Shown here one piece after another: positions 1,158 to 53,039 of a stretch of DNA of 64,000 bases (its first letter is position 1; every line of letters starts with the position of its first letter). The stretch covers positions 4,630 to 68,629 of the forward strand of contig JAQUQW010000004.1 in NCBI GenBank assembly GCA_028716245.1. Reading direction: 5' to 3'. Below the pieces are notes generated by a model. The model saw only the letters and a list, made by a program, of their open reading frames with translations, was not told the DNA's origin and searched no databases. The DNA comes from Candidatus Omnitrophota bacterium (GTDB lineage Bacteria > Omnitrophota > Gorgyraeia > Gygaellales > Profunditerraquicolaceae). A program made the position numbers and the translations under genes.

Positions 1158-4048
1158 TTTAACGGCTCCTTCCAGGTTTCTTTTAACTTATTAATATCGG
1201 CATCCAGGCAAACTTTTCCGTCTAAACCAAATATTTTAAAATCAGGTCTCTTGGTTAAACACCCTGCCAGGCCAAAAGAAGCGCCTTTTAAAAGTCTTTC
1301 AAATTCTTTTTGGCTGGCCTTCTCCACCTCCACCACAAAACGGGAGTTTGACTCTGAAAAAAGCAGAAAATCATTGCGCTTATCAGGCGACTGATAGGGA
1401 GCCTCTGCCAAAAATATTTCCATGCCTAAGCCGCCGCTAAAAGCAACTTCAGCCAAAGCCACAGCCAAGCCTCCGTCAGAGCAATCGTGCATCGACTTAA
1501 CCAAACCTTTTTCTGTTGCCTTACTCAAGGCGCTAAAAGTTTTCTTTGCATCCTGATGATAAACCTTGGGCACTTGGTTCCCCACTGCCTTGTATAAATC
1601 ATAATAATGCGAGCCGCCTAATTCATCGCGGGTCTTACCCACGACATAAATTAAATTACCGGCTTCTTTGGCATACATCGACACTGCTTTATTCACATCA
1701 TCCATGACGCTGATTGCCGAAATCAGCAGCGTGCCCGGAATCGGCGTAGATTTACCGTGCACGTTGAACTCGTTATAAAAGCTATCCTTTCCCGAAATAA
1801 ACGGCAGGCCATAAGCTTTGGCGGTATGATAACAGCCGTAAGCCGCGCGGACCAAGCCGCCTAAGCGATCCGGCTTATCGGGATTACCCCAGCAAAAATT
1901 ATCCAGAATCGCTACCTCTTTTAATGAACCGCCCACGCTGATAATCTGGCGCAAGGCCTCATCAATACAGGAAGCCGCCATCCAGTAAGGATCGATAAAA
2001 CCAAAACGAAAATTTATGCCGTTAGAAATAATGATCCCTTTATTGGAATCAAATAACGGCTTGGTTACACTGGCATCGCTTGGCCCATCATTTTGAAGTC
2101 CGGCCAAAGGTTTGATAATCGAGCCGCCCTGCACTTCATGATCGTATTGACGCACCACCCATTCTTTAGAGCAAATATCATAATGGGCGAGCAGTTTTAA
2201 TAAATCCACGGTAAAATTTTTCTTTTCAGTAATCTTTGGTTCCCTGTGTTTGCTTTGGATGTAAACTGCTTTCTTAGCAATCTGCGGTATGCCTTCATGT
2301 AAAAAATGCATATCCAAATCGCAAACCAGATTATCCTGATAAAAAAGCTCTAATCTTTTGGTGCCGGTAAACTCTCCGATTACCGCGGCGCGGACATTTT
2401 CATTGGCAAATATACTAATTAACTTTTCGATATTTTTAGGCGGGACTGAAATTACCATTCTTTCCTGCGACTCAGAAATCCAGATCTCCATATAAGAAAG
2501 GCCGGAATATTTTAAAGGGACACGATCCAAATAAACCTTGGCCCCTAACTCCGCCCCCATCTCTCCTACCGCGCTGGACAATCCCCCTGCTCCGCAATCG
2601 GTAACGGCGGTGTATAAATTCTGTTCGCGCGCCTGTAAAATCGTATCCAAAACCTTTTTTTCTTCAATGGGATTGCCAATTTGCACTGCGCCGCTGGAAA
2701 CAGTTTCCGATTCATGGGTCAGCTCACCCGAAGAAAAAGTTGCTCCGTGAATTCCGTCGCGGCCGGTTGCCCCGCCTACCACTACAATTAAATCTCCTTT
2801 ATTTGTTTGCTTGAAAGATTTATCTTTGGGAATAATTCCCACTGTGCCGCAATAGACCAGCGGATTGCCCGCAAAGTGTTCATGGAATAATATCGCGCCA
2901 TTTACCGTGGGAATTCCCATTTTATTTCCATAATCACGCACTCCGCTGACTACCCCCTTCATCACCCGCTTAGGATGCAATGAACCAACCGGAACCTTGT
3001 TAAACGCCAGATCCGGAGGAGCAAAACAAAATATATCGCTGTTTAAAATCGGCTTTGCCCCCAGCCCGGTGCCCATGGAATCACGGATTACTCCGCCGAT
3101 ACCGGTATTTGCCCCGCCAAAAGGCTCTAATGCCGAAGGATGATTGTGTGTTTCCACTTTAAAACAAATATTATTCTCTTTATCGAATTTAATTACTCCG
3201 GAGTTATCTTTAAATACGGAAACGCACCAATCCTTATTTAACTCCTTGGTGGCTTTCATAATTGTCGACTTAAGCAGGTTTTTGATCGCTGTGTTGCCAA
3301 GCGCGGGCGCGGCTTTACTTTCTTTATAAGCAATGTTGCCGCGGAAGGTTTTATGGTAGCAATGCTCAGACCAGGTTTGGGCGATTGTTTCCAATTCGCA
3401 GTCAGTGGGATTACGCTTGATCTTACGGAAATAATCCCGGATCTGGCGCATCTCATTTAAATTTAAAAATAGCTGGCCCTTTTTACTAAGCTCTAAAAGT
3501 TTAGCATCCGTTGCCCCCAACAAATCTACCGTAATCAGATTAAACCGGTAGCCGGGCAGATGTTTGGTGTCCCCTTCAATAAGTCCGGGGCTGATTACAT
3601 GCTGGATAAGTTTGTTATAAAGAAGTTTTTCGGAAATGGTTTTTAGCTGGGAGGAAGAAAGCTTGCCGAAGATGATATATTTTTTCGCGGTCTTTACCGA
3701 TTCAACTGTGGTAATCCCTAAATCCCGGATACCTTTTAAAACTGATGCCTCAACCGGATCCATTACTCCCGGGTTATAGACGACCTCGACAATATGCTGA
3801 TTGGCTTTAAGAGAATTATCTGACTGATCAGATAAGATTTTGTAATCCTGCGCGACTTTATCCGTTAAAAGCTCCTGGCAGATACTTATAATTTGGCCTT
3901 GCGCTAAATTACCTTCTAAAGTATAAGCCTGGATAAACCTCACCTCTTTTACGTCGGCAATCCCCAGGTCAAAAATATCCTTGGCTACAGCCGCCCCGAC
4001 AGCGTCAAAAATACCGGGCTTATCCACTACTTCGATTTTGTACCGCAT
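1151..4048 (-). CDS. purL: Phosphoribosylformylglycinamidine synthase II (small-type PurL) with two tandem N-terminal PurS-like domains (PurS-PurS-PurL fusion), 965 aa.
   Basis: Residues 1-~80 (MRYKIEVVDKPGIFDAVGAAV...VRFIQAYTLEG) and ~85-165 (HIVEVVYNPGVMDPVEASVLKGIRDLGI...KKYIIFGKL) each match the PurS fold pattern V.V..KPGV.DP.G.AV...L..LG...V..VR.GK. The remainder is typical FGAM synthetase II (AIR-synthase-related domains; GGANTGIGGVIRD, paired PurM-like repeats). Confidence 0.9.
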   Translation of the reverse strand: MRYKIEVVDKPGIFDAVGAAVAKDIFDLGIADVKEVRFIQAYTLEGNLAQGQIISICQELLTDKVAQDYKILSDQSDNSLKANQHIVEVVYNPGVMDPVEASVLKGIRDLGITTVESVKTAKKYIIFGKLSSSQLKTISEKLLYNKLIQHVISPGLIEGDTKHLPGYRFNLITVDLLGATDAKLLELSKKGQLFLNLNEMRQIRDYFRKIKRNPTDCELETIAQTWSEHCYHKTFRGNIAYKESKAAPALGNTAIKNLLKSTIMKATKELNKDWCVSVFKDNSGVIKFDKENNICFKVETHNHPSALEPFGGANTGIGGVIRDSMGTGLGAKPILNSDIFCFAPPDLAFNKVPVGSLHPKRVMKGVVSGVRDYGNKMGIPTVNGAILFHEHFAGNPLVYCGTVGIIPKDKSFKQTNKGDLIVVVGGATGRDGIHGATFSSGELTHESETVSSGAVQIGNPIEEKKVLDTILQAREQNLYTAVTDCGAGGLSSAVGEMGAELGAKVYLDRVPLKYSGLSYMEIWISESQERMVISVPPKNIEKLISIFANENVRAAVIGEFTGTKRLELFYQDNLVCDLDMHFLHEGIPQIAKKAVYIQSKHREPKITEKKNFTVDLLKLLAHYDICSKEWVVRQYDHEVQGGSIIKPLAGLQNDGPSDASVTKPLFDSNKGIIISNGINFRFGFIDPYWMAASCIDEALRQIISVGGSLKEVAILDNFCWGNPDKPDRLGGLVRAAYGCYHTAKAYGLPFISGKDSFYNEFNVHGKSTPIPGTLLISAISVMDDVNKAVSMYAKEAGNLIYVVGKTRDELGGSHYYDLYKAVGNQVPKVYHQDAKKTFSALSKATEKGLVKSMHDCSDGGLAVALAEVAFSGGLGMEIFLAEAPYQSPDKRNDFLLFSESNSRFVVEVEKASQKEFERLLKGASFGLAGCLTKRPDFKIFGLDGKVCLDADINKLKETWKEPLKW

Positions 4049-4081
4049 ATTTAACGAGGTTTAAAAAAGGTGAGGGCTAAA

Positions 4082-5374
4082 TTATAATCCGACCTTCACA
4101 AAGATTTTATTAACGTTGCGTAAGTAAAAATCCAAATCGAATAGCTTATCCATTTCTTTGGAACCTAAATATTTGGCGGCTTGCGGTAAAGCTAAAAGGT
4201 TATCCTTAAAATTACCGGAGCCCTTCCAGGTTTGCATGGCTGCCTGCTGCACCAGATCATAGGCCTTGGTTCTTTCTAAGCCTTTATTCATTAAAGCAAT
4301 CAAAACACGCTGTGAAAAAATCAGGCCGCCTGTTTTGGCAAGGTTAGCCAGCATATTATCCGGATAGACCTTCATCCCGGAAACTACTTCCGTAAATTTA
4401 TTCAGCATATAATCCAAGGCTAAAGTGGAATCCGGAAAAATTATCCGCTCAACCGAAGAGTGGCTGATATCGCGTTCATGCCAAAGCGCCACATTTTCTA
4501 ATGCCACCTGGGCATTGGCGCGCAAGAGGCGGGCTAAACCGCAGATACGTTCGCAGATTACCGGATTGCGTTTATGCGGCATAGCGCTGGATCCCTTCTG
4601 CCCTTTGCCAAATGGTTCTTCAACTTCTAAAACTTCGGTCTTCTGCAGGTGCCTGATTTCAGTAGCGAATTTTTCTAATGAGGCGCCGATTACCGCCAGA
4701 GTGGCCATATATTGTGCGTATACATCCCGTTGTATTACCTGTGTGGCAATATTCACCGGCTCAAGGCCAAGTTTCTTACAGACATAAGCTTCAACATAAG
4801 GCTCAATATTGGAATAGGTGCCGACTGCTCCGGATAATTTTCCTAAGCAAGCCCCTTCTTTGGCGGATTTTAACCGGGCTAAATTCCGTCTGCTTTCATC
4901 AAACCAGAGCGCCAGCTTTAAACCAAAGGTTGTCGGCTCAGCATGCACCCCATGCGTGCGGCCGATACAAGCCATATCTTTATAAGTTCTAGCTTTCTTT
5001 GCCAAAACTTTGAGTAATTTTTCTAAATCTTCGATTAATATATCAGAAGCACTTTTTATTTGCACGCCTAGGGTAGTATCCAAGATATCGGAGGAGGTCA
5101 GGCCCATATGCAGGTATTGGGCGTCTTTACCTATATATTGGGCTACATTGGAAACAAACGCCACAACATCATGTTGTGTCTTCTCTTCGATTTTCCGGAT
5201 TTCAGACAGGTTAAATTTGGCTTTTTGTTTGATGCGTTTTACTGCTTGCGGCGGGACGATTTTTTTGGCAGCGTAAGCCTCAAGCGCGAGTATCTCGATG
5301 GCAAGCATAGTCTTAAACTTAAACTCCTCCTGCCAGATACTCTTCATTTTCGCCAGGCTGTAACGCTCAATCAT
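4082..5374 (-). CDS. purB: Adenylosuccinate lyase (PurB). The start is corrected to the internal ATG (MIERYSLAKM...). The ORF-track start at 5464 adds a spurious 30-aa N-extension.
   Basis: Fumarate-lyase family signature GSSAMPHKRNP. The N-terminus MIERYS matches the canonical PurB start. A GGGGG RBS lies 7 nt upstream of the ATG at 5374. Confidence 0.9.
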   Translation of the reverse strand: MIERYSLAKMKSIWQEEFKFKTMLAIEILALEAYAAKKIVPPQAVKRIKQKAKFNLSEIRKIEEKTQHDVVAFVSNVAQYIGKDAQYLHMGLTSSDILDTTLGVQIKSASDILIEDLEKLLKVLAKKARTYKDMACIGRTHGVHAEPTTFGLKLALWFDESRRNLARLKSAKEGACLGKLSGAVGTYSNIEPYVEAYVCKKLGLEPVNIATQVIQRDVYAQYMATLAVIGASLEKFATEIRHLQKTEVLEVEEPFGKGQKGSSAMPHKRNPVICERICGLARLLRANAQVALENVALWHERDISHSSVERIIFPDSTLALDYMLNKFTEVVSGMKVYPDNMLANLAKTGGLIFSQRVLIALMNKGLERTKAYDLVQQAAMQTWKGSGNFKDNLLALPQAAKYLGSKEMDKLFDLDFYLRNVNKIFVKVGL

Positions 5375-5405
5375 CGCGGACCCCCGTTTATTGTTTGAGA
5401 AGGTA

Positions 5406-5434
5406 ATTATAGCAAAATCCCGCCGTTTTAGCAA
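5406..5434 (-). promoter_or_regulatory. Putative sigma70-type promoter for purB (and the downstream purSL-LOG-purQ): TTGCTA -17- TATAAT with a TGn extended -10.
   Basis: Minus-strand sequence ...TTATTTGCTAAAACGGCGGGATTTTGCTATAAT, located ~30 nt upstream of the purB RBS. Confidence 0.4.
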
Positions 5435-5502
5435 ATAAAATAAGCAGCGGGTCCTGCCTGCCAAGCCACCTCGCCGTGCTCACTTGAATATCATATTGTT
5501 TC

Positions 5503-5530
5503 TTGCAATCATCCTATTTTGTTTTATAAT
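5503..5530 (+). promoter_or_regulatory. Putative sigma70 promoter TTGCAA -16- TATAAT for the divergent PpiD-like gene.
   Basis: ttgcaatcatcctattttgttttataat, followed by a GGAGG RBS and the ATG at 5555. Confidence 0.45.
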
Positions 5531-5554
5531 TAATGAATATAACTGGAGGTTAAA

Positions 5555-6676
5555 ATGTTAAAAATTTTACGCAATAAGAAAACCGCGAAAAAAGTCTGGA
5601 TTGGCCTGGCCATAATTATTATCCCTGCCTTTGCGCTTTGGGGATTTGGAGGGGCATTCCGCAGTAAAGAAGAAACTGCCGCTGTCGGAAGGATCTTTGG
5701 CCATAATGTCTCAAATCTTGAGTTTAAAGAATCCCTCTCAGCCGTAAGAACCTCCGCTACTATGCAATTCGGAGACAAACTCCCGGAGATTGAGAAATAC
5801 TTAAACTTACAGGCGCAAGCCTGGCAGAGGTTAATCCTTTTGCATGAAGCAAAAGTACGTAAAATCACCGTAAGCGACAAAGAGGTTATCAGCACAATTC
5901 AAAGCTCCCCTTATTTTCAGGACAAATACGGCTTTAGCAATAAGGTTTATGTTGAAACCTTGCGTTATGTCTTTAGGCTGCAGCCGCGCATCTTTGAGGA
6001 ACAGATGCGCCAGAGTCTAACCCTGGCTAAACTTTACGATCAGGTAACTAAAGATGTAAAATTAAGCGATGAACAGATCCGCCAGAAATACACAGAAGTC
6101 AATCAAGAATTAAACATCCATTATATTGCCAGCTTATTTTCCGACTTTGCCGCAAAAATTAAACCCACTGATAAAGAAATCGCTTCTTTCTTTGACAAAA
6201 ATAAAGCTATGTTTAAAGAACCTCCGGCTAAAGATAAACCGGCGCGGATTCCGGAGTTAGCCGAGATTAAGGACAAAGTTAAAGACGCTTTAATCAAAGA
6301 AGGGGCTAAAAAAACAGCAGAGGATAAAATAAAGGAATGCGCGGAAATTCTAAAAAAGGAGGAATTTATTCAGGCAGCCAAAGCCAGCGGCCTGAAAACC
6401 GGCCAAACCGCCTTCTTCAAATCCAGCGGCCAGATCGAAAACCTGGGAGCTGCGGAAATTTTCTGGAATACCGCCAAAAAGCTAAAAGATAAAGAGCTAA
6501 GCAGTACGCTTTCTAATGAAAAGGGCTATTATATTATCAAGCTGGGTTTGATTAAACCTATCGAAGAAGCTAAATTCGCCAAGGAAAAACAGGAATTTAG
6601 CCAGAAATTAATCTCTGAAAAGAAAAGCGAAGTTTTTGGTAAGTTTACTGAAGAGTTAATTAAAAAGGCGCAATAA
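5555..6676 (+). CDS. Membrane-anchored periplasmic chaperone of the PpiD/SurA-N-terminal-domain family. It lacks the parvulin PPIase domain.
   Basis: N-terminal TM helix (WIGLAIIIIPAFALWGF), then a SurA_N-like region with PpiD-like layout (V.G..I....F, ...SPYFQDKYGFSNKVY...). The 373-aa length, against ~620 aa for PpiD, implies no rotamase domain. Confidence 0.55.
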   Translation: MLKILRNKKTAKKVWIGLAIIIIPAFALWGFGGAFRSKEETAAVGRIFGHNVSNLEFKESLSAVRTSATMQFGDKLPEIEKYLNLQAQAWQRLILLHEAKVRKITVSDKEVISTIQSSPYFQDKYGFSNKVYVETLRYVFRLQPRIFEEQMRQSLTLAKLYDQVTKDVKLSDEQIRQKYTEVNQELNIHYIASLFSDFAAKIKPTDKEIASFFDKNKAMFKEPPAKDKPARIPELAEIKDKVKDALIKEGAKKTAEDKIKECAEILKKEEFIQAAKASGLKTGQTAFFKSSGQIENLGAAEIFWNTAKKLKDKELSSTLSNEKGYYIIKLGLIKPIEEAKFAKEKQEFSQKLISEKKSEVFGKFTEELIKKAQ

Positions 6677-6688
6677 AAGGGGATTATA

Positions 6689-6739
6689 AATACGACCCTG
6701 TTTCCCAGCCAATCGGGAAACAGGGTCGTATTTATTTGG
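6689..6739. terminator. Bidirectional rho-independent terminator between convergent genes: 17-bp perfect stem ATACGACCCTGTTTCCC / GGGAAACAGGGTCGTAT with an 8-nt loop, and T/A runs on both sides.
   Basis: Sequence aaatacgaccctgtttccc-agccaatc-gggaaacagggtcgtatttatttgg, read directly. Confidence 0.7.
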
Positions 6740-6749
6740 CTTTACTTAA

Positions 6750-6932
6750 TTAGCTTACTTTTATTGCGTTAACCGGGCAAGAATCGGCTACTTCCTGTAA
6801 ATTACAGCTTGCGCAAGTTTGCGCCTTAACATGGGCAATCCCGTCACCCTGCACTTCAAAAACATCCGGGCATGACTGCTCGCATAAACCGCATCCTACG
6901 CAAGTAGAAGCATCAACCGTGACCTTTGACAT
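6750..6932 (-). CDS. Small [4Fe-4S]/[3Fe-4S] ferredoxin (60 aa).
   Basis: CVGCGLCEQSCP plus a second CASC...CP motif. This is the single-cluster Desulfovibrio/Pyrococcus-type layout. Confidence 0.8.
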   Translation of the reverse strand: MSKVTVDASTCVGCGLCEQSCPDVFEVQGDGIAHVKAQTCASCNLQEVADSCPVNAIKVS

Positions 6933-6949
6933 ATTCGTTCTCCCTTTTA

Positions 6950-7429
6950 TTATCTTTCCAAAAGATTTTCAAACATCTCTTCGTGCGTTACTTCTTCGCT
7001 CAATATATGGGTAACCAGCTGATAAGTAACATTGTCTTTGCCGAGTGTCTTCTTGGCAATCTTATTATAAACCTCAATTGCCCCTGCCTCTGCCTCAGTT
7101 ACAATCCGGATAATCCGATTAATATCGGCGGTATTCTTCGGAGGCATTAAATAAGGGGAATTGGCCCCTTTTTCTAACTCCATCGGATTGGCTGGAGGAA
7201 CATCGCCAAGCTTGATAATTAAATCCGCCAATTCACCGGCATGCTCCAATTCATCCTTGGCTAATTTCTCTAACATCTCCTGTATATCTTCATAGGCGCG
7301 GCCGGAAACAATCTGGGCCATGTACCAGTAAAGATAAAATGCCAGCCATTCATCGCAATACGCTTTATTTAAATCCTTAACCAGGTCTTTTAAGCTTAAA
7401 TCGACAATTGCCCTTGCTTGTTTTCCCAT
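6950..7429 (-). CDS. Ferritin-like diiron protein (Bfr/Dps/rubrerythrin superfamily, four-helix bundle).
   Basis: Three E..ExxH-type motifs spaced as in ferritin-like proteins (DELEHAGEL, EAEAGAIEVY, EEVTHEEMF). 159 aa. Confidence 0.55.
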   Translation of the reverse strand: MGKQARAIVDLSLKDLVKDLNKAYCDEWLAFYLYWYMAQIVSGRAYEDIQEMLEKLAKDELEHAGELADLIIKLGDVPPANPMELEKGANSPYLMPPKNTADINRIIRIVTEAEAGAIEVYNKIAKKTLGKDNVTYQLVTHILSEEVTHEEMFENLLER

Positions 7430-7444
7430 GCTTGCCCTCCCCTG

Positions 7445-8323
7445 TTAAGCTTCTAGCTTCAAATTGTACTTCTTTATATTATTATCCGCAATCTCCTGGA
7501 TTTTTTTGATCTCTTCAGGATTATTGAGGAGATGTTTAAACCTGCCCTGGGTCTTTAAATATTCTTCAACCGGTTTAGGGCTAATTTGTTTACGGCCGGT
7601 CAATACGCCGTTTTCATATTCGAATAAAGGATAAAGCCCGGTTTCTACCGCTAATTTTGCAACCGGCAGCATCTGATTTGATTCATGCCGCCAACCTAAA
7701 GGGCAAGACGCGTGGATCTGGATATATTTCGGGCCTTTGATCGAAATTGCCTTTTTTACTTTACGCGATAAGTCCTGCGGAAAACCAACCGAAGCCGTGG
7801 CCACATAAGGAATCCCGTGCGCCAGGCAAATCTCAGGCACCGGTTTTTTGGGCCGGATGTTTCCCGAAGACTGCGCGCCCGCCGGGCTAGTCGTAGTGTT
7901 TGTATCAAAAGGAGTAAGCCCGCTTCTTTGCACTCCGGTATTCATGTAGGCTTCGTTATCATAACAGACATACAAAATATCATGGCCGCGTTCAAGCATG
8001 CCGCTTAAGGCCTGCAAGCCAATATCCCCGGTTGAGCCATCACCGCCCTGAGCAATAACATTAGTCGCGTCCTTTTTACCTAAATAGATCAGCGCTGCCT
8101 CAACCCCGGATGCAACCGCCGCGGAATTTTCAAACAAGGAATGGATCCAGGGAACCCCCCAGGCAGTATCCGGGTACTTGGTCGAAAAAACTTCCAGGCA
8201 GCCGGTGTTATTGACGACGATCGTGTTTGCTCCCGCTGCTTCAATAACTAAACGCGCGGCAATCGCCTGTCCGCAGCCGGCGCAAGCAGTATGTCCGGAT
8301 TTAAATAAAGGGCTATTCTCCAT
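7445..8323 (-). CDS. porB: Pyruvate/2-oxoacid:ferredoxin oxidoreductase beta subunit (TPP-binding).
   Basis: GDG-x-N TPP motif context (AQGGDGSTGDIG...NEAYMNTGVQ) and conserved Cys residues. Confidence 0.9.
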   Translation of the reverse strand: MENSPLFKSGHTACAGCGQAIAARLVIEAAGANTIVVNNTGCLEVFSTKYPDTAWGVPWIHSLFENSAAVASGVEAALIYLGKKDATNVIAQGGDGSTGDIGLQALSGMLERGHDILYVCYDNEAYMNTGVQRSGLTPFDTNTTTSPAGAQSSGNIRPKKPVPEICLAHGIPYVATASVGFPQDLSRKVKKAISIKGPKYIQIHASCPLGWRHESNQMLPVAKLAVETGLYPLFEYENGVLTGRKQISPKPVEEYLKTQGRFKHLLNNPEEIKKIQEIADNNIKKYNLKLEA

Positions 8324-9500
8324 ATTCTTCCTTGAGTAACTCTGGTTTTAAGTCGATGAAATCAGAATTAACTTCCTTAACCGTAAGCCTTCTAAATACT
8401 TCATGGATAGATTCCAGGGTTATATCTCTTCCGCCAAGGCCGGCGACAAAACTGCTGACTACTTTGGGACCTTTTTTCTTGCCATAGAAGGCGGCTTTCA
8501 TCTCCACGGCAATCGGCGCATAAGCCCCCAAAGAAACAGCTTTATCTAAAACCGCTACTTTGGGCACATTCTTTAAAGCTTCATAAACCCTGGCGTAAGG
8601 AAAAGGCCGATAGGTTATAATCCGTAAGAGCCCGACTTTTTTGCCTTTTGCGCGCTGTTCATCAACCACTTCTTTGATCGTGCCGCAGACCGAACCCATG
8701 GCCACAATCACTTTTTCAGCGTCTTTGGTCTGATATTCTTCAACCAGTAAATCCTGGTAATCCCTGCCAAAAACAGCATTAAACTCTTTGCTTATTTCGG
8801 ATAAATACCCGACTGATTCTTTCATCGTTTCCTGGATGGCAAAACGCGTCTCCATATAATAATCCGGATCAGCCAAAAGCCCCATAGAAATCGGCTCGGC
8901 CGTGTCTAATTTGTACAAAGGCTTATACGCCGGTAAAAATTTATTTACTTTCTCCTGTTCGGGGATATCCACTGTTTCCATCCCGTGGGTCAGGATAAAA
9001 CCATCCATACAAACCATCACCGGAAGCATTACCCGTTTATCTTCGGCCAAGCGGTAGGCGATCAGGTGGAAATCAACCACCTCCTGATTATCCTCGGCGT
9101 AAATCTGAAACCATCCGGCATCACGCAAAGATATGGAATCCTGCTGGTCGTTCCAAATGTTTATGGGAGCGCTTATGGCGCGATTGGCGCAGGTCATGAC
9201 CACCGGCAGGCGCATTCCGGCAATATTAAAAACCACCTCCTGCATATAGAATAACCCTTGAGAGCTGGTAGCGGTATAAACGCGCACTCCGGTTGCCGAA
9301 CCTCCTAAGACTACAGAAGCTGCGGAATGCTCGCTTTCCACGTTCACAAATTGCGAATTAAGTTCTTTGTTAGCCACCATCTGCGCAAGGTCTTCAACAA
9401 TATGCGTTTGAGGTGTTATTGGATAAGCCGAGATTACACCGGGCGCAGTCGCCTTGATAATTTCCGCTATCGCGTGTGATCCCTCTACAAATTCTTTCAT
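8313..9500 (-). CDS. porA: Pyruvate/2-oxoacid:ferredoxin oxidoreductase alpha subunit.
   Basis: 395 aa. POR alpha domain I/II pattern (GYPITPQT..., TATSSQG). Confidence 0.9.
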   Translation of the reverse strand: MKEFVEGSHAIAEIIKATAPGVISAYPITPQTHIVEDLAQMVANKELNSQFVNVESEHSAASVVLGGSATGVRVYTATSSQGLFYMQEVVFNIAGMRLPVVMTCANRAISAPINIWNDQQDSISLRDAGWFQIYAEDNQEVVDFHLIAYRLAEDKRVMLPVMVCMDGFILTHGMETVDIPEQEKVNKFLPAYKPLYKLDTAEPISMGLLADPDYYMETRFAIQETMKESVGYLSEISKEFNAVFGRDYQDLLVEEYQTKDAEKVIVAMGSVCGTIKEVVDEQRAKGKKVGLLRIITYRPFPYARVYEALKNVPKVAVLDKAVSLGAYAPIAVEMKAAFYGKKKGPKVVSSFVAGLGGRDITLESIHEVFRRLTVKEVNSDFIDLKPELLKEEYGE

Positions 9501-9770: not shown

Positions 9771-10322
9771 TTATCCTTTTAGTTTATTTTTAACAAATTC
9801 AAAACCTTCTTTAACTGCCTGGATATTGCCTTCCTGGGCCTTACCCTTAAAACGATTTTTGACTACCGCGATAAGATTATCTAATTTTAATTCTCCGGTA
9901 GCCGCGGCGAATGCCCCGATTAAAGCGGTATTGCCTAACGGCCGGCCGATGTTTTTTAAAGCAATTTCATTAGCCGGGACTACAAAGACTTTTTGCTTGG
10001 CTTTTAATTTGGGCAGCTCCAGGTCTTCTTTGCCGTTAATAATCGCTACCCCATCATCCTTTAATCCGGAAAAACAGTTATAACCGCGCATAAGGGTCGG
10101 ATCAACGATAATTACGTAGTCAGGCTCATAAATCTGGCTGCGCAGACGCACCGGGTCAGTATCTACGCGCACAAAGGCGTTCATCGGCGCCCCCATCCGG
10201 GCTGCTCCGAAGTTGGGAAAGGCATAAGGGTATTTACCTTCGTTAAAGTAGCTAAACCCTAACAATGCCGCGGTAGTGATTGCGCCCTGGCCGGCGCGGG
10301 CATGGATTCTGATTTCTTTCAT
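9771..10322 (-). CDS. porG: POR gamma subunit.
   Basis: HARAGQGAITTAALLG motif typical of the 2-oxoacid:acceptor oxidoreductase gamma subunit. Gene order gamma-delta-alpha-beta. Confidence 0.85.
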   Translation of the reverse strand: MKEIRIHARAGQGAITTAALLGFSYFNEGKYPYAFPNFGAARMGAPMNAFVRVDTDPVRLRSQIYEPDYVIIVDPTLMRGYNCFSGLKDDGVAIINGKEDLELPKLKAKQKVFVVPANEIALKNIGRPLGNTALIGAFAAATGELKLDNLIAVVKNRFKGKAQEGNIQAVKEGFEFVKNKLKG

Positions 10323-10370
10323 ATTATTCTTTCTTGTGCCACTGTGAAAATCGCCAAAAGCGATTTCTTG

Positions 10371-36613: not shown

Positions 36614-36687
<74 letters not shown>

Positions 36688-36723
36688 GATACCTATCGCG
36701 CACCGACGTCCTCTACCAAGAGG

Positions 36724-36755
36724 ACACCCGCGCAATACCTTATAAGCGCGGGGTG
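36724..36755. repeat. REP-like palindrome ACACCCGCGCAATACCTTATAAGCGCGGGGTG between tRNA-Leu and tRNA-Gly (followed by CTTTTTG on the plus strand).
   Basis: It matches the 30743-30775 copy with two loop substitutions. Confidence 0.45.
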
Positions 36756-36785
36756 CTTTTTGCTACTCGGGTGCTGCAAGTTTCT

Positions 36786-36867
36786 TGGGCGGAAGAGGAC
36801 TTGAACCTCCAAGGGTTGCCCCAATAGCTCCTAAGGCTATCGCGTCTGCCAATTTCGCCATCCGCCC
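36786..36867 (-). tRNA. tRNA-Leu (anticodon TAG), 82 nt with a long variable arm.
   Basis: Manual fold: GGGCGGA acceptor stem, anticodon stem-loop ATAGC-CTTAGGA-GCTAT, 13-nt variable arm, T-arm GGAGGTTCAAGTCCTCT. Confidence 0.85.
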
Positions 36868-36907
36868 TAGAACGGGCACTACCTGCATCCTCTCCTGCTG
36901 AATTTAT

Positions 36908-36980
36908 TGAGCCTCCCGCGACTCGAACGCGGCACAACCACATTAAAAGTGTGGTGCTCTACCGGATGAGCTAGAGGCCC
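36908..36980 (-). tRNA. tRNA-Lys (anticodon TTT), 73 nt.
   Basis: Manual fold: GGGCCTC acceptor stem, D-arm GCTCATCCGGTAGAGC, anticodon stem-loop CCACA-CTTTTAA-TGTGG, T-arm CCGCGTTCGAGTCGCGG. Confidence 0.85.
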
Positions 36981-36985
36981 AAAAT

Positions 36986-46767: not shown

Positions 46768-48429
46768 TTACCTGTCGTAGGTGGAATAAAAATACGGAGT
46801 GTGCGCCATAAATTCCGCGGCGCAGGTATCAACCAGCTTAAAATCCACGGTTATATCCATGGATTTTCTTAACTTATAAACTTCAGCTTCCTCCAGGGAT
46901 AAAAGTTTAGCCAGCTGCCTATCGCTAAAACCATACTCCTTGGCGCGCTTCAGTAATTCATGGGTTATATTATTTTTATTCTCAATCAACTCTCTCTCGC
47001 AATCGATAATCTCTTTAATATTATGCAAAAACCAGCGGTCAATCTTAGTTAAATCATGGATTACCTCAATATCTAATTTAGCGCGAAAGGCATCGCCGAT
47101 ATAAAAAATCCTTTCCGCGTTCGGCTGCTTTAACTTCTGGCGGATCTTATCTAAGACCGAATTATCCAGCTGAATATCGGCCGGGTTATTAAAAACAATA
47201 CTCTCTAAACCAAACTTCTTGATCTCCAAAGAACGTAAACCCTTCTGCAGGGCCTCTTTAAATGTACGGCCGATGGACATCGCCTCGCCTACTGATTTCA
47301 TCGATATTCCCAGCGTATTATCCGCCAAAGCGAATTTTTCAAAAGTAAAACGCGGGACCTTGACCACGCAATAATCAATCGCCGGCTCAAAACAGGCGGG
47401 TGTTGACTTAGTAATATCATTCGGGATTTCATCAAGGGTATAGCCCACGGCAAGCTTAGCGGCAATTTTGGCAATCGGGAAACCCGTGGCCTTTGAAGAT
47501 AACGCGGAACTGCGCGAAACCCGCGGGTTCATTTCAATAACCACCATCCTGCCGGTCTTGGGATGCACAGCAAACTGGATATTGGAACCGCCGGTTTCTA
47601 CCCCGATCTCGCGAATACAGGCAAGAGCGGCGTCGCGCATCTTTTGATACTCCCTATCCGTTAATGTCTGAATAGGGGCAACCGTAATGCTGTCCCCGGT
47701 ATGCACGCCCATGGGATCAAAATTTTCAATAGTGCAGATAACCACGACATTATCTTTTAAGTCACGCATAACCTCCAACTCAAATTCCTTCCAGCCAATC
47801 ACGGATTCCTCAACCAGGATCTCACTAATCATACTGGATTCCAGGCCGCGCTTGGCCAGGACCTTAAATTCTTCCAGATTATAAGCAATCGATCCCCCCG
47901 CTCCTCCCATCGTAAAACTGGGCCGGATAATTAAAGGAAAACCGATTTTCTCCGATACCGCGATTGCCTGCTCCAAATTATAAGCCTGATCGCTTTTAGG
48001 TAGATCTAATCCGATCTTTTCCATTGCCGCTTTAAATAATTTACGGTCCTCGCCCTTTTTAATTGATTTTATATTTGCCCCGATAGTTTCCACCTTATAT
48101 TTCTTGAGCACTCCTTTTTTTTCCAATTCCACAGTCGTATTCAAAGCAGTCTGGCCGCCAAGCGTAGGCAAGAGGGCATCCGGCCTTTCCTTGGCAATAA
48201 TATCTTCCACGATCTCGGCGGTAATCGGCTCAAGATAGGTTCTATCGGCAACCTCCGGGTCAGTCATAATTGTCGCCGGATTGGAATTCACCAGGATTAT
48301 CTTATACCCCTCCTGCTTTAAGACCTTGCAAGCCTGGGTCCCGGAATAATCAAATTCACAAGCCTGGCCGATAACAATCGGGCCGCTTCCGATGATAAGG
48401 ATCTTTTTTAGATCAGTTCTTTTGGGCAT
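46768..48429 (-). CDS. carB: Carbamoyl-phosphate synthase large subunit, N-terminal half only (carboxyphosphate synthetase plus oligomerisation domains). It ends at ...[10 protein letters not shown].
   Basis: 553 aa, colinear with CarB residues 1-~550 (ATP-grasp 1, then the oligomerisation domain). A clean stop is followed 8 nt later by the next gene. No second ATP-grasp or MGS-like domain occurs in the window. Confidence 0.9.
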
Positions 48430-49528
48430 ATTTTTTTGGTTTCTTTGTTGCCTGCATTAATTTTACAAACTCAGCGAATAAATACCCTGCATCATGCGGG
48501 CCGGGGGATGCCTCAGGATGAAACTGCACGGAAAATAAAGGCAGCTTTTTATGGCGTAAACCCTCTGAGGTGCCGTCATTTAAATTCACATGAGTCAACT
48601 CAATATCTTTTTTATTTAAAGAGTTGATATCCACGCAAAACCCGTGATTCTGACTGGTTATCGAAACTTTACCCGTCCTTAAATCTTTTACCGGATGGTT
48701 TGCCCCGTGATGGCCAAATTTAAGTTTATAAGTTTTACCGCCTAAAGCCAGCCCGAGCATCTGGTGCCCCAGGCAGATCCCAAAAATCGGAACTCGGCCG
48801 ATGAGATTGGCCACTGTTTCAATCACATAACCCACGGCAGCCGGGTCTCCGGGGCCGTTAGAAAGCAAAACTCCGTCGGGATTTTCCTCAAGGATCTCTT
48901 GATAAGTTGCCTGCGCGGGCACGACCGTAACATTGCATTTATGGCGGCTTAATTCCCTCAAGGTATTGAACTTTACCCCGCAGTCTAAAACAACTACTTT
49001 ATAGCGGTTGTCTTTGGATTGCGCATACACATATTTCTGGGCAATGGCCACGTCTTTAACCAAGTCCAGGCCCACTAGCCCCCGGCTTTGCTTTGCCTTA
49101 TTCACCAGGCTCCGCGCATCAGAATCCTGCGTAGACAAAACCGCTTTCATCGCGCCTTTTTCTCTTATATACAAAGTCAACGCGCGCGTATCAATTCCTT
49201 CAATTGCCAAAATATTATTTTCTTTTAAATACTCTCCCAGTTCCTGGTTACTTCTCCAATTACTGGCAATCTTACTATACTCTTTAACTACAAAACCTTC
49301 TAAAAAAGGCCGGCGGCTCTCCGCGTCCTCCTTATTGATTCCATAATTACCGATCAAAGGATAAGTCATGGCCACGATCTGACCCTTATAGGAGGGATCG
49401 GTAATGATCTCCTGATATCCGGCCATACTGGTATTAAAAACAACTTCCCCCGTAATCTGGCCGCTGGCGCCAAAAGAGAGGCCCTCAAACACTGTGCCGT
49501 CTTCTAAAGCAAGAAATGCCTGCATCAT
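48413..49528 (-). CDS. carA: Carbamoyl-phosphate synthase small (glutaminase) subunit.
   Basis: GICLGHQ catalytic Cys motif and the CPSase_sm N-domain. 371 aa. Confidence 0.95.
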
Positions 49529-51129
49529 TATTTTTTTTCTGCGGCGGCGCGGATAAACTCCCTAAACAAAGGATGCGCCGCATCGGGTTTGGATTTAAAT
49601 TCGGGGTGAAATTGCACGGCAATAAAATATGGATGATTTTTCAATTCCACAATCTCAACCAAATTCTTCTTCTGGTAAATCCCGGAAAAAACTACTCCTT
49701 TACATTCTAATCTTTTACGGAATTTGTTATTAAACTCATACCGGTGGCGGTGGCGCTCAAAAATAAGGCTTTTCTTATAAATCCTGGCAGCTAAAGTATT
49801 CTTTTTTATTTTACAGGGATAGGCGCCCAGGCGCATTGTCCCTCCCATATCCTTAATATTTTTCTGTTCAACTAAAAGGCTGATTACGGGGTTCTTGGCT
49901 TTGGGTTTAAATTCAGTGGAATTGGCATCCGCTAAACCGCAGATAGCGCGCGCAAAATCCATCACCGCGCACTGCATCCCCAAACAAATCCCTAAGAAAG
50001 GAATTTTATTTTTTCGCGCAAAGCCAACCGCCTTAATCTTGCCTTCGATCCCCCTGCACCCAAAACCTCCGGGCACTAAAATTGCATCTATTCCGGCCAA
50101 CAGCTTCTCCGCGCCATGCTTTTCAATATCTTCAGAGTCAATCTTTTTAACCTCTACTTTTACCTGATTGCTGATGCCTCCGTGGGTAATTGCTTCGTAA
50201 ATGGATTTATAAGCATCCTGCAGGCCGATATATTTACCCACCACCGCCACCTGGACTGTTTTTCGCGGAGATAACAGGCGTTCGACCACATTCTTCTCCC
50301 AATCCTTTAAATCGGATGGCTTGGAAATTAAACCAAAGTGGCTTAAGATTATTTCATCGAGGATCTGGCCCTTAAAAACCAACGGCACCTGATAAATCGA
50401 TTCCACATCGCGGGACTCAATAACCGCTTCCTTCCTCACATTGCAAAATAAAGATATTTTTTCCTTAACCTCATCGGAAAGAGTTTTTTCAGTGCGGCAG
50501 ATCAATATATCCGGCTGGATACCGATCTGGCGTAACGTTTGCACGCTGTGCTGCGTGGGCTTGGTTTTTATCTCATCGGCAACCTTAATGTAAGGAACCA
50601 GGGTAAGATGGATATAGAGGACATTTTTTTCTCCGGCATCCACCTCAAACTGCCGGGCCGCCTCCAGGAAAGGAAGGCTTTCGATATCACCAACCGTGCC
50701 GCCTATCTCAATCAATATAATATCCGCCCGGCTGACTTCCGCAACCTTCTTGATCCTATTTTTTATTTCACCGGTAATATGCGGGATAACCTGGATAGTT
50801 TTCCCTAAATAATCCCCTCTGCGCTCACGCGAAATTACCGCGTTGTAAACCTGGCCGGTAGTGGCATTATTAAACTTGGTCATCGCCGCTTTGGTAAATC
50901 TTTCGTAATGGCCTAAGTCCAGGTCGGTTTCCGCCCCGTCATCGGTAACATAGACCTCCCCGTGCTGATAAGGGTTCATTGTCCCCGGATCAACATTAAT
51001 ATAAGGATCCAGTTTCATTAAGGTGACTTTGAGGCCGCGGGATTCCAGGATTTTAGCGATCGAGGCGGAAGCGATTCCCTTGCCTAAGCTCGAGATAACG
51101 CCGCCGGTGATAAAGATATATTTACTCAT
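49528..51129 (-). CDS. pyrG: CTP synthase.
   Basis: N-terminal [11 protein letters not shown] and the C-terminal GATase GICLGMQ. Confidence 0.95.
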
Positions 51130-51191
51130 ATTTTACGTGAAGAAGGCGTTTGGTGCCGGCAATCCGGCTCCTAAACGCCTTTGTTTTATTA

Positions 51192-51220
51192 ACTATAACA
51201 AAAGCGTTTAAGAATGTCAA
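51192..51220 (-). promoter_or_regulatory. Putative sigma70 promoter TTGACA -17- TATAGT for pyrG-carA-carB'.
   Basis: Minus strand TTGACAttcttaaacgcttttgtTATAGTtaat, ~60 nt upstream of the pyrG ATG. Confidence 0.45.
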
Positions 51221-51284
51221 ACTATTTTTAAAACCTAATACTGCGCGGGTCCTGCCTTTAGCGTCTGTCTTGTCTTGTTTCCTC

Positions 51285-51400
51285 GCGCACCGCTTGCCCC
51301 GCCCCGGCGAGGCGGGGCTGCGCTCGGCCAGAATTTTGCGCTCTGCCAAGCTTCGTAGATAGCCGGGCATCCGTGCCCGCGCAAAATTCTCACGTGCGCT
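51285..51400. repeat. GC-rich block of nested REP-like palindromes.
   Basis: CCCGCC-ccggcga-GGCGGG; 12-bp arms AGAATTTTGCGC ... GCGCAAAATTCT enclosing GGGCA-tccg-TGCCC; GCGCAC ... GTGCGC. It shares the CCGCGCAA(A)TTC motif with the REP-like copies at 28424, 30743 and 36724. No plausible ORF. Confidence 0.4.
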
Positions 51401-51441
51401 CGGAACCAAGCCAAGCCATCCGCTAATACTATATACATAAA

Positions 51442-51655
51442 TGACACTGACAAGTTTCGCAGCGAGTGTCGATTTTAGCCAATGGAGCTTGAGCGAGGAT
51501 ACCCCAAGGCCAACCTTTAGGTTGGCAATCTTGGGATGGCGATGCTGTTTGAGTGGTTTTTGCTAGAGCAAAAACCACGAGTTCAGCAGCCACCGAAATG
51601 CGAAAGACCATTGGCGTTAAGAAATCGACCTCGAGCGAGAAACTTGTCGGGGTCA
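51442..51655. repeat. 214-nt imperfect palindrome (candidate MITE/ERIC-like element or long-hairpin sRNA).
   Basis: ~35-nt arms TGACACTGACAAGTTTCGCAGCGAGTGTCGATTTT(AGCCAATGG) / (CCATTGGCG...)GAAATCGACCTCGAGCGAGAAACTTGTCGGGGTCA. Internal hairpins CCCAAGG[CCAACC-ttta-GGTTGG]caatCTTGGG (51503-51535) and perfect GTGGTTTTTGC-taga-GCAAAAACCAC (51553-51578). Confidence 0.5.
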
Positions 51656-51707
51656 CCTGTAACAGCGCAGGGCGAAAAATTTCAGCGACGGAAGCAAAAG
51701 ATGGAAA

Positions 51708-53039
51708 TCAAACTAAACGCAAATACTCCTTGCCTTCCTTCCAGGGATTGAGGTAACGCTCAATACTCAGACTGTTATCCTGGACCAGATCAACTACGCG
51801 TTTTTTATCTAGGGGTGAGATAATCTCGACTTTTGGCCGCCGGATGTCGGATTCATTTTCATCTTTAACTAATGCAATACTCCCATCATTTAACGCCACG
51901 ATCGAACCAACCGGCCAGAGGCCCATAAATCGAAAAAATTTATCCAGTAACTCCTGATCAAAAGAAGCGCCTCCCTCTTTATTCATTATATTATAGACCA
52001 CGTCAGGAGAATAATCCTGTTTATAGCCCCTTCTTTGGGAAAGGGCATCATAGACATCGCAGATAGAAACAATCCGGGAAGCAATATGCTGCTTTCTTAA
52101 TAAGGGCATCCGGGGGTAACCGGAGGAATCATATTTTAAATGGTGCTCAAAGCTGACGACCACAGGCAAGAGGCCCAAAGTATCTACATATTTAAGCATT
52201 ATCTCCGCCCCCATAATCGTGTGGCTGCGAATACGCCCAAACTCCTGGTCCGTAAGCTTATCGGGTTTATGCAGTATTTTACGCGAAATGAATAGCTTGC
52301 CGATATCATGGAACATGGCGGCAACGCCGATATTTAAAACATCGCTCTTGTCAAAACCCAGGCGCGAAGAAAAATACATGGAAAGAATAGAAACATTGAG
52401 CATATGGATATAGGTCTCCATATCGTATCTTTTTACCGTAGCCAGCTTAAGCAGCTCCTGGCGCTGCGTGCTTAAATTTTCCATAATATTACCCATGGAA
52501 AGTTTAAGCGCAAGATGGTCGATCTTTTCAAAATTAAGCACTCCGCTTAAAGCCTGATTAATCTTATCCGCGGAAGAATCATAAAGACTGCGTTGAGCCG
52601 GGCCAACATCAGCCTTATCTTTTTCGGACCCAACCTTAAGCTTGCCTATATTAATATGCTGGATACCGGCAAGGTTAAGCATCTCCTGAAGATCCCCTTT
52701 AAAATCTTCTTTGGGCCGGGCGATAAATTCGATGAATATGCCCAGCTCATCTTTACTTAACCCGCGCAAAAAAGCAAGCCTTTCGATATTTCTTTCTTTT
52801 AAATATAAGATCGCCGGGCGCAGAAATTTACTCAGATCAAAAAAGATCTCCTTTTCAAAAGCCAGGTCCTCTCCGACAATTCCAATGATCATCTCCTGGC
52901 GCTCTGCCAGGACATCCTCAAAAGACGCATAGGCGCTATCCAAAGACCTGGTAAACATAGGATGCTTCAGGCCGTACATCTTATAAGCCTGAAGACAGGT
53001 AAGTAAACTTTTAAAAGCCGCCTCAATATTAGAAAACAT
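51708..53039 (-). CDS. HD-GYP domain protein (predicted c-di-GMP phosphodiesterase) with a ~190-aa N-terminal domain of unknown function.
   Basis: HD motif (AAMFHDIGK), HHLKYDSSGYP (HD-GYP signature), SICDVYDAL. Confidence 0.8.
   Translation of the reverse strand: MFSNIEAAFKSLLTCLQAYKMYGLKHPMFTRSLDSAYASFEDVLAERQEMIIGIVGEDLAFEKEIFFDLSKFLRPAILYLKERNIERLAFLRGLSKDELGIFIEFIARPKEDFKGDLQEMLNLAGIQHINIGKLKVGSEKDKADVGPAQRSLYDSSADKINQALSGVLNFEKIDHLALKLSMGNIMENLSTQRQELLKLATVKRYDMETYIHMLNVSILSMYFSSRLGFDKSDVLNIGVAAMFHDIGKLFISRKILHKPDKLTDQEFGRIRSHTIMGAEIMLKYVDTLGLLPVVVSFEHHLKYDSSGYPRMPLLRKQHIASRIVSICDVYDALSQRRGYKQDYSPDVVYNIMNKEGGASFDQELLDKFFRFMGLWPVGSIVALNDGSIALVKDENESDIRRPKVEIISPLDKKRVVDLVQDNSLSIERYLNPWKEGKEYLRLV

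Follow-up and report, generated by a model that had tools for sequence, protein, structure and literature searches.

A Y-shaped, covarying intergenic element beside pyrG and its family of probably ERIC/BOX-like repeats in Candidatus Omnitrophota

Results

The element in the HD-pyrG spacer

The subject of this work is a 214-nt imperfect palindrome at positions 51442-51655 of a 64-kb stretch of contig JAQUQW010000004.1 (the window, by which we mean the whole stretch of DNA that was analyzed). Its host is the 578-nt stretch that separates pyrG (49528-51129) from a gene with an HD_5/HD domain (51708-53039), both on the minus strand. It lies 3′ of the HD gene, as a preliminary description of the window had placed it, and upstream of pyrG's own promoter. 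We refer to this element as module A and take the window minus strand as its sense, which makes it co-directional with the flanking genes here. More than 20 homologs of module A were recovered from metagenomes and metagenome-assembled genomes (MAGs), and they share a branched, covarying fold.

Inspection of the letters agreed with the preliminary reading of paired arms interrupted by a bubble. The outer arms, TGACACTGACAAGTTTC (51442-51458) and GAAACTTGTCGGGGTCA (51639-51655), are 17 nt each and 88% complementary in an inverted-repeat search (repeat I2). They are followed by the 8/9-nt bubble (GCAGCGAG / CTCGAGCGA), by a second paired segment (TGTCGATTTT / GAAATCGAC), and by CCAATGG (51479-51485), which pairs with CCATTGG (51608-51614). 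The two internal hairpins were likewise confirmed, a nested one at 51503-51536 and a perfect one of 11 bp at 51553-51578 (GTGGTTTTTGC-TAGA-GCAAAAACCAC). Folding, which had been proposed as a check, placed both strands far below shuffled sequences: the plus strand has a minimum free energy of -103.7 kcal/mol (shuffles -59.4 +/- 4.6, z -9.7) and the minus strand one of -99.6 kcal/mol (z -10.8), and 0/200 shuffles fold as well as the element on either strand. Covariance model R1 matched the window at 51439-51659 (212.9 bits, E 2e-51), and both blastn and the covariance model place a single copy of module A in the 64 kb.

Known RNA classes did not account for the element. With Rfam 15, there was nothing at gathering thresholds, nothing at E<=1 and nothing relevant at E<=10, the matches at E>1 being at chance level (mir-548, CRISPR-DR29 and Bacilli-1, E 1.8-4.8), and ARAGORN found no tmRNA in it. 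We also set aside the RNAs of the signal recognition particle and of RNase P. Retron msr/msd and IscB/TnpB omega RNAs were dismissed because the neighborhood has no gene for a reverse transcriptase or a nuclease, respectively, and hammerhead-type ribozymes because the element lacks their core motifs.

A family of homologs in Omnitrophota

Homologs (given L numbers below) came from three kinds of search. A scan of genome contigs with the arm pattern TGACNCNGACAAGTTTC (15 specified bases) gave at least 120 matches, of which ~119 of the 120 listed were chance; among the matches listed, re-screening with blastn left a single true homolog, L073, in a MAG labeled Planctomycetales, and comparison with this locus showed that conservation reaches ~200 nt past the palindrome. 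A hairpin-pattern scan of metagenomes yielded 12 loci, all of which (12/12) were true homologs. Finally, a 75-codon open reading frame (ORF) that spans the element (51429-51656, minus strand) was used as bait in protein databases, where it retrieved 25 and then 89 clusters. All clusters with a named source (4/4) were from Candidatus Omnitrophica/Omnitrophota. The named relatives of the window's PyrG were also Omnitrophica/Omnitrophota, except one labeled Candidatus Margulisiibacteriota, and on these relatives we placed the window in Omnitrophota. No match to module A was found in viral contigs, phages or plasmids. Our literature searches found nothing on noncoding RNAs (ncRNAs) of Omnitrophota/Omnitrophica, and a search with repeat terms gave nothing on Omnitrophica.

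As the ORF coincides with the element and 89 database "proteins" align to it, the element could be read as the coding sequence of a small protein. We rejected this reading, to which we assign almost no probability. Between copies, the encoded residues undergo radical swaps (VVFALAKTT / ALRALALSA / SRPALAGRL, alignment A3) that mirror the base-pair covariation of a hairpin, and indels between copies measure 1, 14-30 and further lengths that are not multiples of three; none of the matches has a recorded Pfam domain, and many of them begin at an internal ATG within stem P3 of the structure described below. Since the indels shift the frame and the swaps track the hairpin, the ORF is not a gene.

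Consensus structure and covariation

Twenty full copies of module A were aligned (alignment A5), with the consensus read on the window minus strand. The family fold is a Y, in which a long closing stem, a conserved bubble and further stems lead to a three-way junction with two hairpin arms. It comprises 73 pairs, and 93.4% of the 1,438 pair cells hold standard pairs, while 30/73 pairs are changed on both sides (compensatory). None of the shuffles (0/500) reached the observed values for pairing and covariation, and pairing fell to 34-43% when partners were slid by 1-3 columns. The 214-nt Y-shaped structured repeat at 51442-51655 (minus strand) is supported by its fold (z ~ -10), by the covariance model and by the 20-copy alignment.

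All parts of the Y are given here on the minus strand. In the window, the closing stem P1 is formed by a 5′ strand, UGACCCCGACAAGUUUC (51639-51655, inverted repeat I2), and a 3′ strand, GAAACUUGUCAGUGUCA (51442-51458). P1 is present and covarying in 20/20 full copies, with 7 pairs of helix 1 changed on both sides, and is often prolonged in the family to UAAUG…CAUUA. The 5′ strand of the conserved bubble, UCGCUCGAG (51630-51638), carries one unpaired GCUC and belongs to a near-invariant CTCGCTC-AG in A5, with the GCTC at column 25 in 16/20 copies. Its 3′ strand is CUCGCUGC (51459-51466), for which the family consensus is UUCGCUCGAAA (A5 columns 241-252, with a GCTC at column 244 in most copies). 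Both strands bear the same-sense motif (CUCGCUCAG opposite the consensus just given) and are therefore unable to pair. P2 follows, with GUCGAUUUC (51621-51629) as its 5′ strand and AAAAUCGACA (51467-51476) as its 3′ strand, both assigned from A5 and its pair counts; its consensus is GUCGAUUUU/AAAAUCGAC, helix 2 is 92.8% paired, and L135b, L134 and L141 show a compensatory swap from GUC/GAC to CAC/GUG. At a fixed point between P2 and P3, some copies have one or two extra hairpins inserted.

Inward of P2 come P3 and P4, and then the three-way junction bearing P5 and P6. P5 begins with an outer helix, continues through an internal loop that is conserved, and ends in P5b, the perfect 11-bp hairpin with its conserved UCUA loop (GCUCUAGC, 51553-51578, inverted repeat I4), in which 9/11 pairs covary in distant copies. 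P6, the nested hairpin and second arm of the Y (51503-51536, helices 9-10), has a conserved base (UCCC/GGGA) and a variable tip, the distal part being replaced in other copies. Unpaired GCUC occurs at up to five fixed sites: one on each bubble strand, one in the loop of P5b and two in the junction. Set against the preliminary reading of an ERIC/MITE-like element, the interior is branched and covarying rather than a neutral spacer, and the copy number looks low, with one copy in the 64 kb.

Covariation this deep, together with invariant loops, bubble and junction and the five recurrent GCUC sites, is what a family of trans-acting structured ncRNA genes would also display. Module A would then be an RNA with several paralogs per genome that serves as a ribonucleoprotein scaffold or protein sponge, made discretely by processing of read-through transcripts or from a promoter of its own. 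It would present several single-stranded GCUC motifs in the way that CsrB/RsmZ present GGA. We consider this reading unlikely, and think it equally doubtful that A, possibly together with the companion module B described below, is a new multicopy structured RNA class restricted to Omnitrophota that presents GCUC as a scaffold or sponge in trans. The wobble statistics speak against it, because G-U cells (41) are about as frequent as A-C cells (30) in module A, unlike typical RNA genes. RNAalifold likewise scores the two strands alike (-115 sense vs -124 antisense). This symmetry suits a one-strand RNA gene less well than a family that must fold whichever way it is oriented, or whose fold matters in the DNA.

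Presence, absence and spread of copies

The window has a syntenic relative without the element. L148 carries the same gene order (a Glu_synthase-domain (GltS-like) gene, a ~640-aa (639 aa) gene, HD, pyrG, carA and a half-size carB), and its PyrG is 89% identical to that of the window. Its HD-pyrG spacer, however, measures 151 nt vs 578 nt, and in alignment A7 the two spacers share the pyrG promoter and leader alone, with no A and neither of the companion modules B and C in L148. The covariance model found no copy in L148 and none in L147 (PyrG 95% identical). The ~480-nt C-A-B block of the window (51225-51700, minus strand) was therefore either inserted at this locus or deleted from L148, and is not an ancestral regulatory region.

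Elsewhere, module A was seen twice on one contig. The two copies lie 9.4 kb apart on L135/L136 (605-835 and 10055-10266); with 73% identity and compensatory differences between them, either one is nearer to copies in other genomes than to its partner. The same two copies bracket a complete 16S-tRNA-tRNA-23S-5S operon (3330-9202), all on one strand, and module B accompanies the first copy only. Near-identical copies also occupy different loci of the same samples: L123 and L132, from one sample with coverage 12 vs 11, have copies that are 99% identical in different flanks, and the copies of L124 and L127, again at different loci, are 97% identical. Of the multiple copies that the preliminary description expected of a MITE, at least two lie on one contig outside the window. 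In the extra sequence examined, the yield suggests additional copies at ~1 per 100-200 kb.

Some copies are degenerate. L140 has a truncated one (7319-7392), and L125 has a rearranged one (717-985) beside a likely tRNA gene at ~990-1060 (by eye). The wider segment in L125 (545-985) is a composite: a 5′ arm of A type and the 3′ arm of A in inverted orientation are combined with an interior unrelated to A and with module B for a second time. The arms may act as recombination points.

The neighbors of module A are ordinary housekeeping genes that are mostly not conserved between loci. At ~14 loci the element is co-directional with its neighbors and begins ~0-50 nt past the upstream stop codon. 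It is antisense to both neighbors at three independent loci (folD-metF in L127, band7-purD in L124/L130/L134, and L125), and the folD-metF spacer contains it in sense in L133 and in antisense in L127. Several copies are nevertheless retained at orthologous sites, namely band7-A-purD (L124, L130 and L134), Amidohydro_2-A-PNP (L141 and L142) and folD-A-metF (L133 and L127), where flanking proteins are 66-90% identical and module A is 69-84% identical.

For a trans-acting RNA gene family, these data cut both ways. In its favor are the retention at orthologous sites over 66-90% amino acid identity of the flanks, the coexistence of old paralogous subfamilies on one contig, and an orientation bias of ~14:3 toward the neighbors' direction; were the trans reading true, the repeat-like genomics would be gene-family turnover and not selfish mobility. 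Against it, a close syntenic relative lacks the element, other copies are truncated or rearranged, and in some cases a divergent or antisense gene has its start codon no more than ~14 nt from the copy.

The same data dispose of a resemblance to 6S RNA that the preliminary description had pointed out. Its basis is easily seen, as the element is ~200 nt long, its two termini are paired over a long stem, and an internal bubble is flanked by helices; in this reading, it would be the organism's ssrS product, a mimic of the open promoter that binds RNA polymerase. We regard this as highly improbable and rejected it. The Rfam 6S models gave no match at E<=1 or E<=10, and the molecule, instead of being a rod without branches around a large bubble in its center, has a three-way-junction apex and a bubble of ~9/14 nt whose two strands carry the same conserved motif. 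Moreover, one genome has at least 2 copies 9.4 kb apart, the syntenic site of a close relative lacks it, other copies are degenerate, and some stand antisense within operons.

We then weighed the element as a MITE (miniature inverted-repeat transposable element). The signature of MITEs is terminal inverted repeats with flanking target duplications, TA for the ERIC type (PMC3184786). Module A has terminal inverted repeats (the 17-nt arms) and filled and empty sites between relatives (the 578-nt and 151-nt spacers). As to copies per genome, at least two were seen on one contig (L135) and one in the 64-kb window. Flanking duplications, by contrast, were looked for by eye as TA, TTAA and arbitrary k-mers, and none was consistent in the flanks of ~20 copies; the recurrent UAAUG…CAUU(A/U) at copy ends is the extension of P1, not a duplication. 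No transposase or RAYT gene was found near any copy (~10 kb per locus examined), and blastn against 5,426 complete genomes of E. coli, a species that carries ERIC, gave no match at E<=0.01, i.e., no homology to ERIC. The preliminary assignment to ERIC/MITE-like elements is therefore kept for behavior (a multicopy family of long stem-loops, in both orientations, with presence/absence polymorphism) and dropped for membership, for want of a target-site duplication and of similarity to ERIC.

A related possibility is that selection acts at the DNA level, with module A as a mobile element that is non-autonomous. A transposase or recombinase supplied in trans would then use as its substrate the Y-shaped hairpin that the single-stranded DNA forms, or a cruciform. 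REPIN/RAYT systems and the "peel-and-paste" of IS200/IS605 would be its analogs, and topologically the T-shaped inverted terminal repeat of parvoviruses. Elements moved by Y1 transposases are expected to lack target-site duplications, as these copies do. Also in keeping with this possibility are the presence/absence between close relatives, the near-identical copies in different loci, the occurrence of both orientations even at one intergenic site (L133 vs L127), the symmetric tolerance of G-U and A-C with equal folding of both strands, and conserved unpaired motifs that could serve as protein recognition sites. Yet no transposase or RAYT gene lies in the ~10 kb examined at each locus, 73% identity on one contig and long-persisting orthologous copies argue against recent bursts, and the 5′ flanks hold no conserved target sequence beyond A/T richness. 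Module A is also far larger and more branched than the known hairpins of REP, REPIN and IS200 ends. We rate this possibility as rather improbable.

Some further gene content was noted near copies. ORF6N (KilA-N-like DNA-binding) genes stand beside or near A copies in L135 (9538-10008) and L146 (5299-5802), and the latter region also has CopG-antitoxin and SIR2 genes, which suggests that the L146 surroundings are a variable region. In the window, the gene at 5555-6631 has 39% identity to a 478-aa protein adjoining the A copy in L129; no A copy adjoins the window gene, as judged from the covariance model scan of the whole window.

Companion modules and flanking signals

As a palindrome, the 214-nt extent of the preliminary description holds, but the full conserved unit is larger, a block of ~51225-51700 that adds modules B and C to A. 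Module B (51225-51424, minus strand) is a second structured module, identified by nhmmer matches and alignment A6. It is ~170-200 nt long, has a closing stem of its own and almost always lies downstream of A in the same orientation (13 loci). Its covariation is as convincing as that of A: in A6, 47 pairs are 89% paired, 23 are compensatory and 0/500 shuffles do as well; the fold z is -4.3, and wobble cells are again balanced (G-U 17 vs A-C 15). Module B bears several GAGCG motifs, the complement of A's CGCUC. We considered whether B is an inverted, diverged copy of A and rejected this, as local alignment of the two consensus sequences was not above shuffles (z 0.8).

Module C (51656-51700, minus strand; …GCUUCCGUCGCUGAAAUUUUUCGCCCUGCGCUG…) is a short conserved segment recognized by eye in the flank listings. 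Similar segments were seen by eye in five further loci; they precede A in L140, L125 and L132 and come after it in L141 and L145. Its motifs …GCUUUCCGGCUUUUGCU…GAAGAUUUUCGCCGUGUGCU… recur at window 51656-51700, L140 7340-7400 and L125 ~860-940 (by eye). Across loci, the arrangement of C, A and B is a mosaic, and such association with other repeat modules is a further point against a family of trans-acting RNA genes. In L129 and L144, part of the 3′ end of B recurs in inverted form upstream of A. An outer inverted repeat around the A-B composite (25 nt, 76%) was present in L123 only among the loci scanned.

Promoter-like sequences occur at the 3′ side of module A. In the window, a weak sigma70-like match (TTGTCA-16-TAGTAT, 9/12; 51453..51426, minus strand) faces module B, with its -35-like TTGTCA inside the P1 3′ arm, and L133 has a better promoter-like match in the same place (ATGACA-17-TATAGT). 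Both may work as promoters directed outward, as in Correia elements. Copies without B are followed, ~20-50 nt past A's 3′ end and after CAUUUUU, by a strong promoter, TTGACA-17-TAGAAT/TATAAT (L144 ~1395-1440, L135 ~10285-10330 and L146 ~3570-3610).

The element immediately adjoins the 3′ side of the HD gene, which was behind the preliminary proposal of a transcript-stabilizing terminator, and the promoter of pyrG comes after it. The family offers more in this direction, as many copies begin 0-50 nt after a stop codon and end in CAUUU(U/A)U, with the strong promoter next in L144, L135b and L146. Nevertheless, a scan for intrinsic terminators over 51100-51800 gave 0 sites, and the 3′ flank is UUUAUGUAU here, with 3-5 U in other copies. 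The conserved, branched architecture of 215-245 nt goes far beyond what termination needs, and relative L148 does without the element. In L127 and L124, the copies are antisense and separate genes that are co-transcribed, where a promoter would not fit, and termination inside such an operon would silence the next gene. A plain intrinsic terminator or 3′ stabilizer of the HD-gene operon is thus a very unlikely identity for the element, although a cis role on the transcript is possible.

Other features of the locus

The pyrG promoter is strong, of the sigma70 type and TG-extended (TTGACA-17-TATAGT, 51192-51220, minus strand); it lies downstream of the C-A-B block, outside the repeat, and is conserved in L147 and L148, both without the repeat. 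Together with a leader hairpin (AAGGCGUUUAGG…CCAAACGCCUU), this promoter (51220-51192) makes up a segment, 51131-51220 on the minus strand, that is near-invariant in the window, L147 and L148. An inverted repeat (51169-51188 / 51194-51213) allows an alternative pairing of the leader with the promoter-proximal segment. The segment had no Rfam match and looks like a conserved pyrG leader or attenuator.

The carB homolog downstream is 553 aa long and has CPSase_L D1-D3, half a normal large subunit, in the window (46768-48429), L147 (12830-14491) and L148 (12710-14371), so that carB appears to be split or half-size in the window lineage. Farther away, the window holds a cluster of three tRNA genes on the minus strand at 36614-36981 (Gly-GCC, Leu-TAG and Lys-TTT).

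Discussion

Module A is one copy of a previously undescribed family that is not 6S RNA, a simple terminator or a classical MITE. We lean, with moderate confidence, toward the reading that it is a lineage-specific interspersed structured intergenic repeat of Candidatus Omnitrophota, which behaves like ERIC or BOX and acts in cis. The data show the family, its covarying structure, its multiple copies in both orientations, the filled and empty sites and the retention at orthologous places; transcription, action as RNA and the mode of spread are inferred. In RNA, ERIC forms an extended stem-loop, and effects on the stability of mRNAs are reported for it (PMC3184786 and references therein); BOX elements are classed as MITE-like without the classical features and are transcribed with neighboring genes (PMC3184786).

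Several findings weigh against a cis-acting repeat. The 64-kb window has only one copy; neither a target-site duplication (~20 copies) nor a parent insertion sequence or transposase near copies was found. The canonical intrinsic terminator in L145 (~375-405; CCCGCUCUCGAGGCGGG + UUUUUGUUUUU), ~20 nt upstream of the A copy, would keep read-through from reaching that copy. At two polymorphic sites the sense strand is favored (U-G/C-G 10:10 and A-U/G-U 10:10), that is, Watson-Crick and G-U pairs alternate on the sense strand only, as a trans-acting RNA would have it. Finally, the strong conservation of loop, bubble and junction sequences, together with the retention at orthologous sites, exceeds what is expected of a sequence that is merely selfish or a structural spacer, and agrees with an RNA that has a dedicated function. 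Such an RNA, for its part, would have to do with no conserved promoter upstream and no terminator downstream.

For the cis-acting repeat, the following course of events seems plausible from the letters. At the window locus, there is no terminator-like site or good promoter match immediately upstream of A, from which we infer that the element is transcribed by read-through from the HD operon. The transcript would fold as a Y-shaped RNA, with a closing stem of ~17 bp, the bubble, two more stem segments, the three-way junction and two hairpins, and would display up to five unpaired GCUC motifs. In cis, the fold may mark the 3′ end of a transcription unit or the junction between two of them, here the 3′ boundary of the HD operon ahead of the pyrG promoter. 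By analogy with ERIC, BOX and Correia elements, it would most likely act as a processing site, stability element or insulator, with a sequence-specific partner recognizing the GCUC-bearing loops. The family would persist because copies are now and then duplicated or recombined into other intergenic sites and because selection keeps the fold.

Omnitrophota are an abundant, uncultured and poorly known phylum, and Rfam has no family that matches module A. The structure is among the better supported that can be obtained from sequence alone, and the covariance model could annotate the element phylum-wide. Gene callers mis-annotate it as "hypothetical protein" in at least 89 public clusters, and the model would remove these false genes. 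As with ERIC and REPIN, the family bears marks both of mobility (a site found empty, copies in either orientation, homogenized copies) and of long-term structural selection. It is thereby a separate case in which to ask if repeats of this kind are parasites, cis-elements that have been domesticated, or genes for RNA.

Among known systems, 6S RNA is similar in length, paired termini and an internal loop, and every testable defining feature of it failed. Classical MITEs (Correia/CREE, RUP, Nezha and Chunjie) share with module A the terminal inverted repeats, the lack of a transposase gene, the long stem-loop when transcribed and insertion polymorphism, and Correia elements also a possible outward promoter-like sequence in the arm. 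Unlike them, module A has no target-site duplication and no identifiable parent insertion sequence, its interior is under structural constraint, and copies in one genome are down to 73% identical with compensatory changes. REPIN/RAYT systems likewise form long-lived, vertically persistent populations of hairpin repeats, without target-site duplication and in both orientations. REPINs are doublets of ~25-nt REPs, 70-110 nt long, that form a simple hairpin, whereas module A is 215-245 nt long and branched, with no RAYT gene in the flanks examined.

The BOX elements of Streptococcus pneumoniae (boxA-boxB(n)-boxC) are alike in their modular mosaic build, here of C, A and B in variable combination. 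The modules are unrelated in sequence, however, and while the terminal modules of BOX pair into a stable structure, here each module closes on itself; copy number is seemingly lower here, and conservation is phylum-wide vs one species group. From ERIC/IRU (~127 bp), module A differs in being ~2x as long, in its branched three-way-junction apex and covarying hairpins, in having neither TA flanks nor sequence similarity, in belonging to another phylum, and in its link to the structured module B. Like ERIC/IRU, it is an imperfect palindrome of intergenic co-transcribed regions that occurs in either orientation and at low-to-moderate copy number, with a sequence unusually conserved clade-wide and with insertions at fixed internal sites in some copies.

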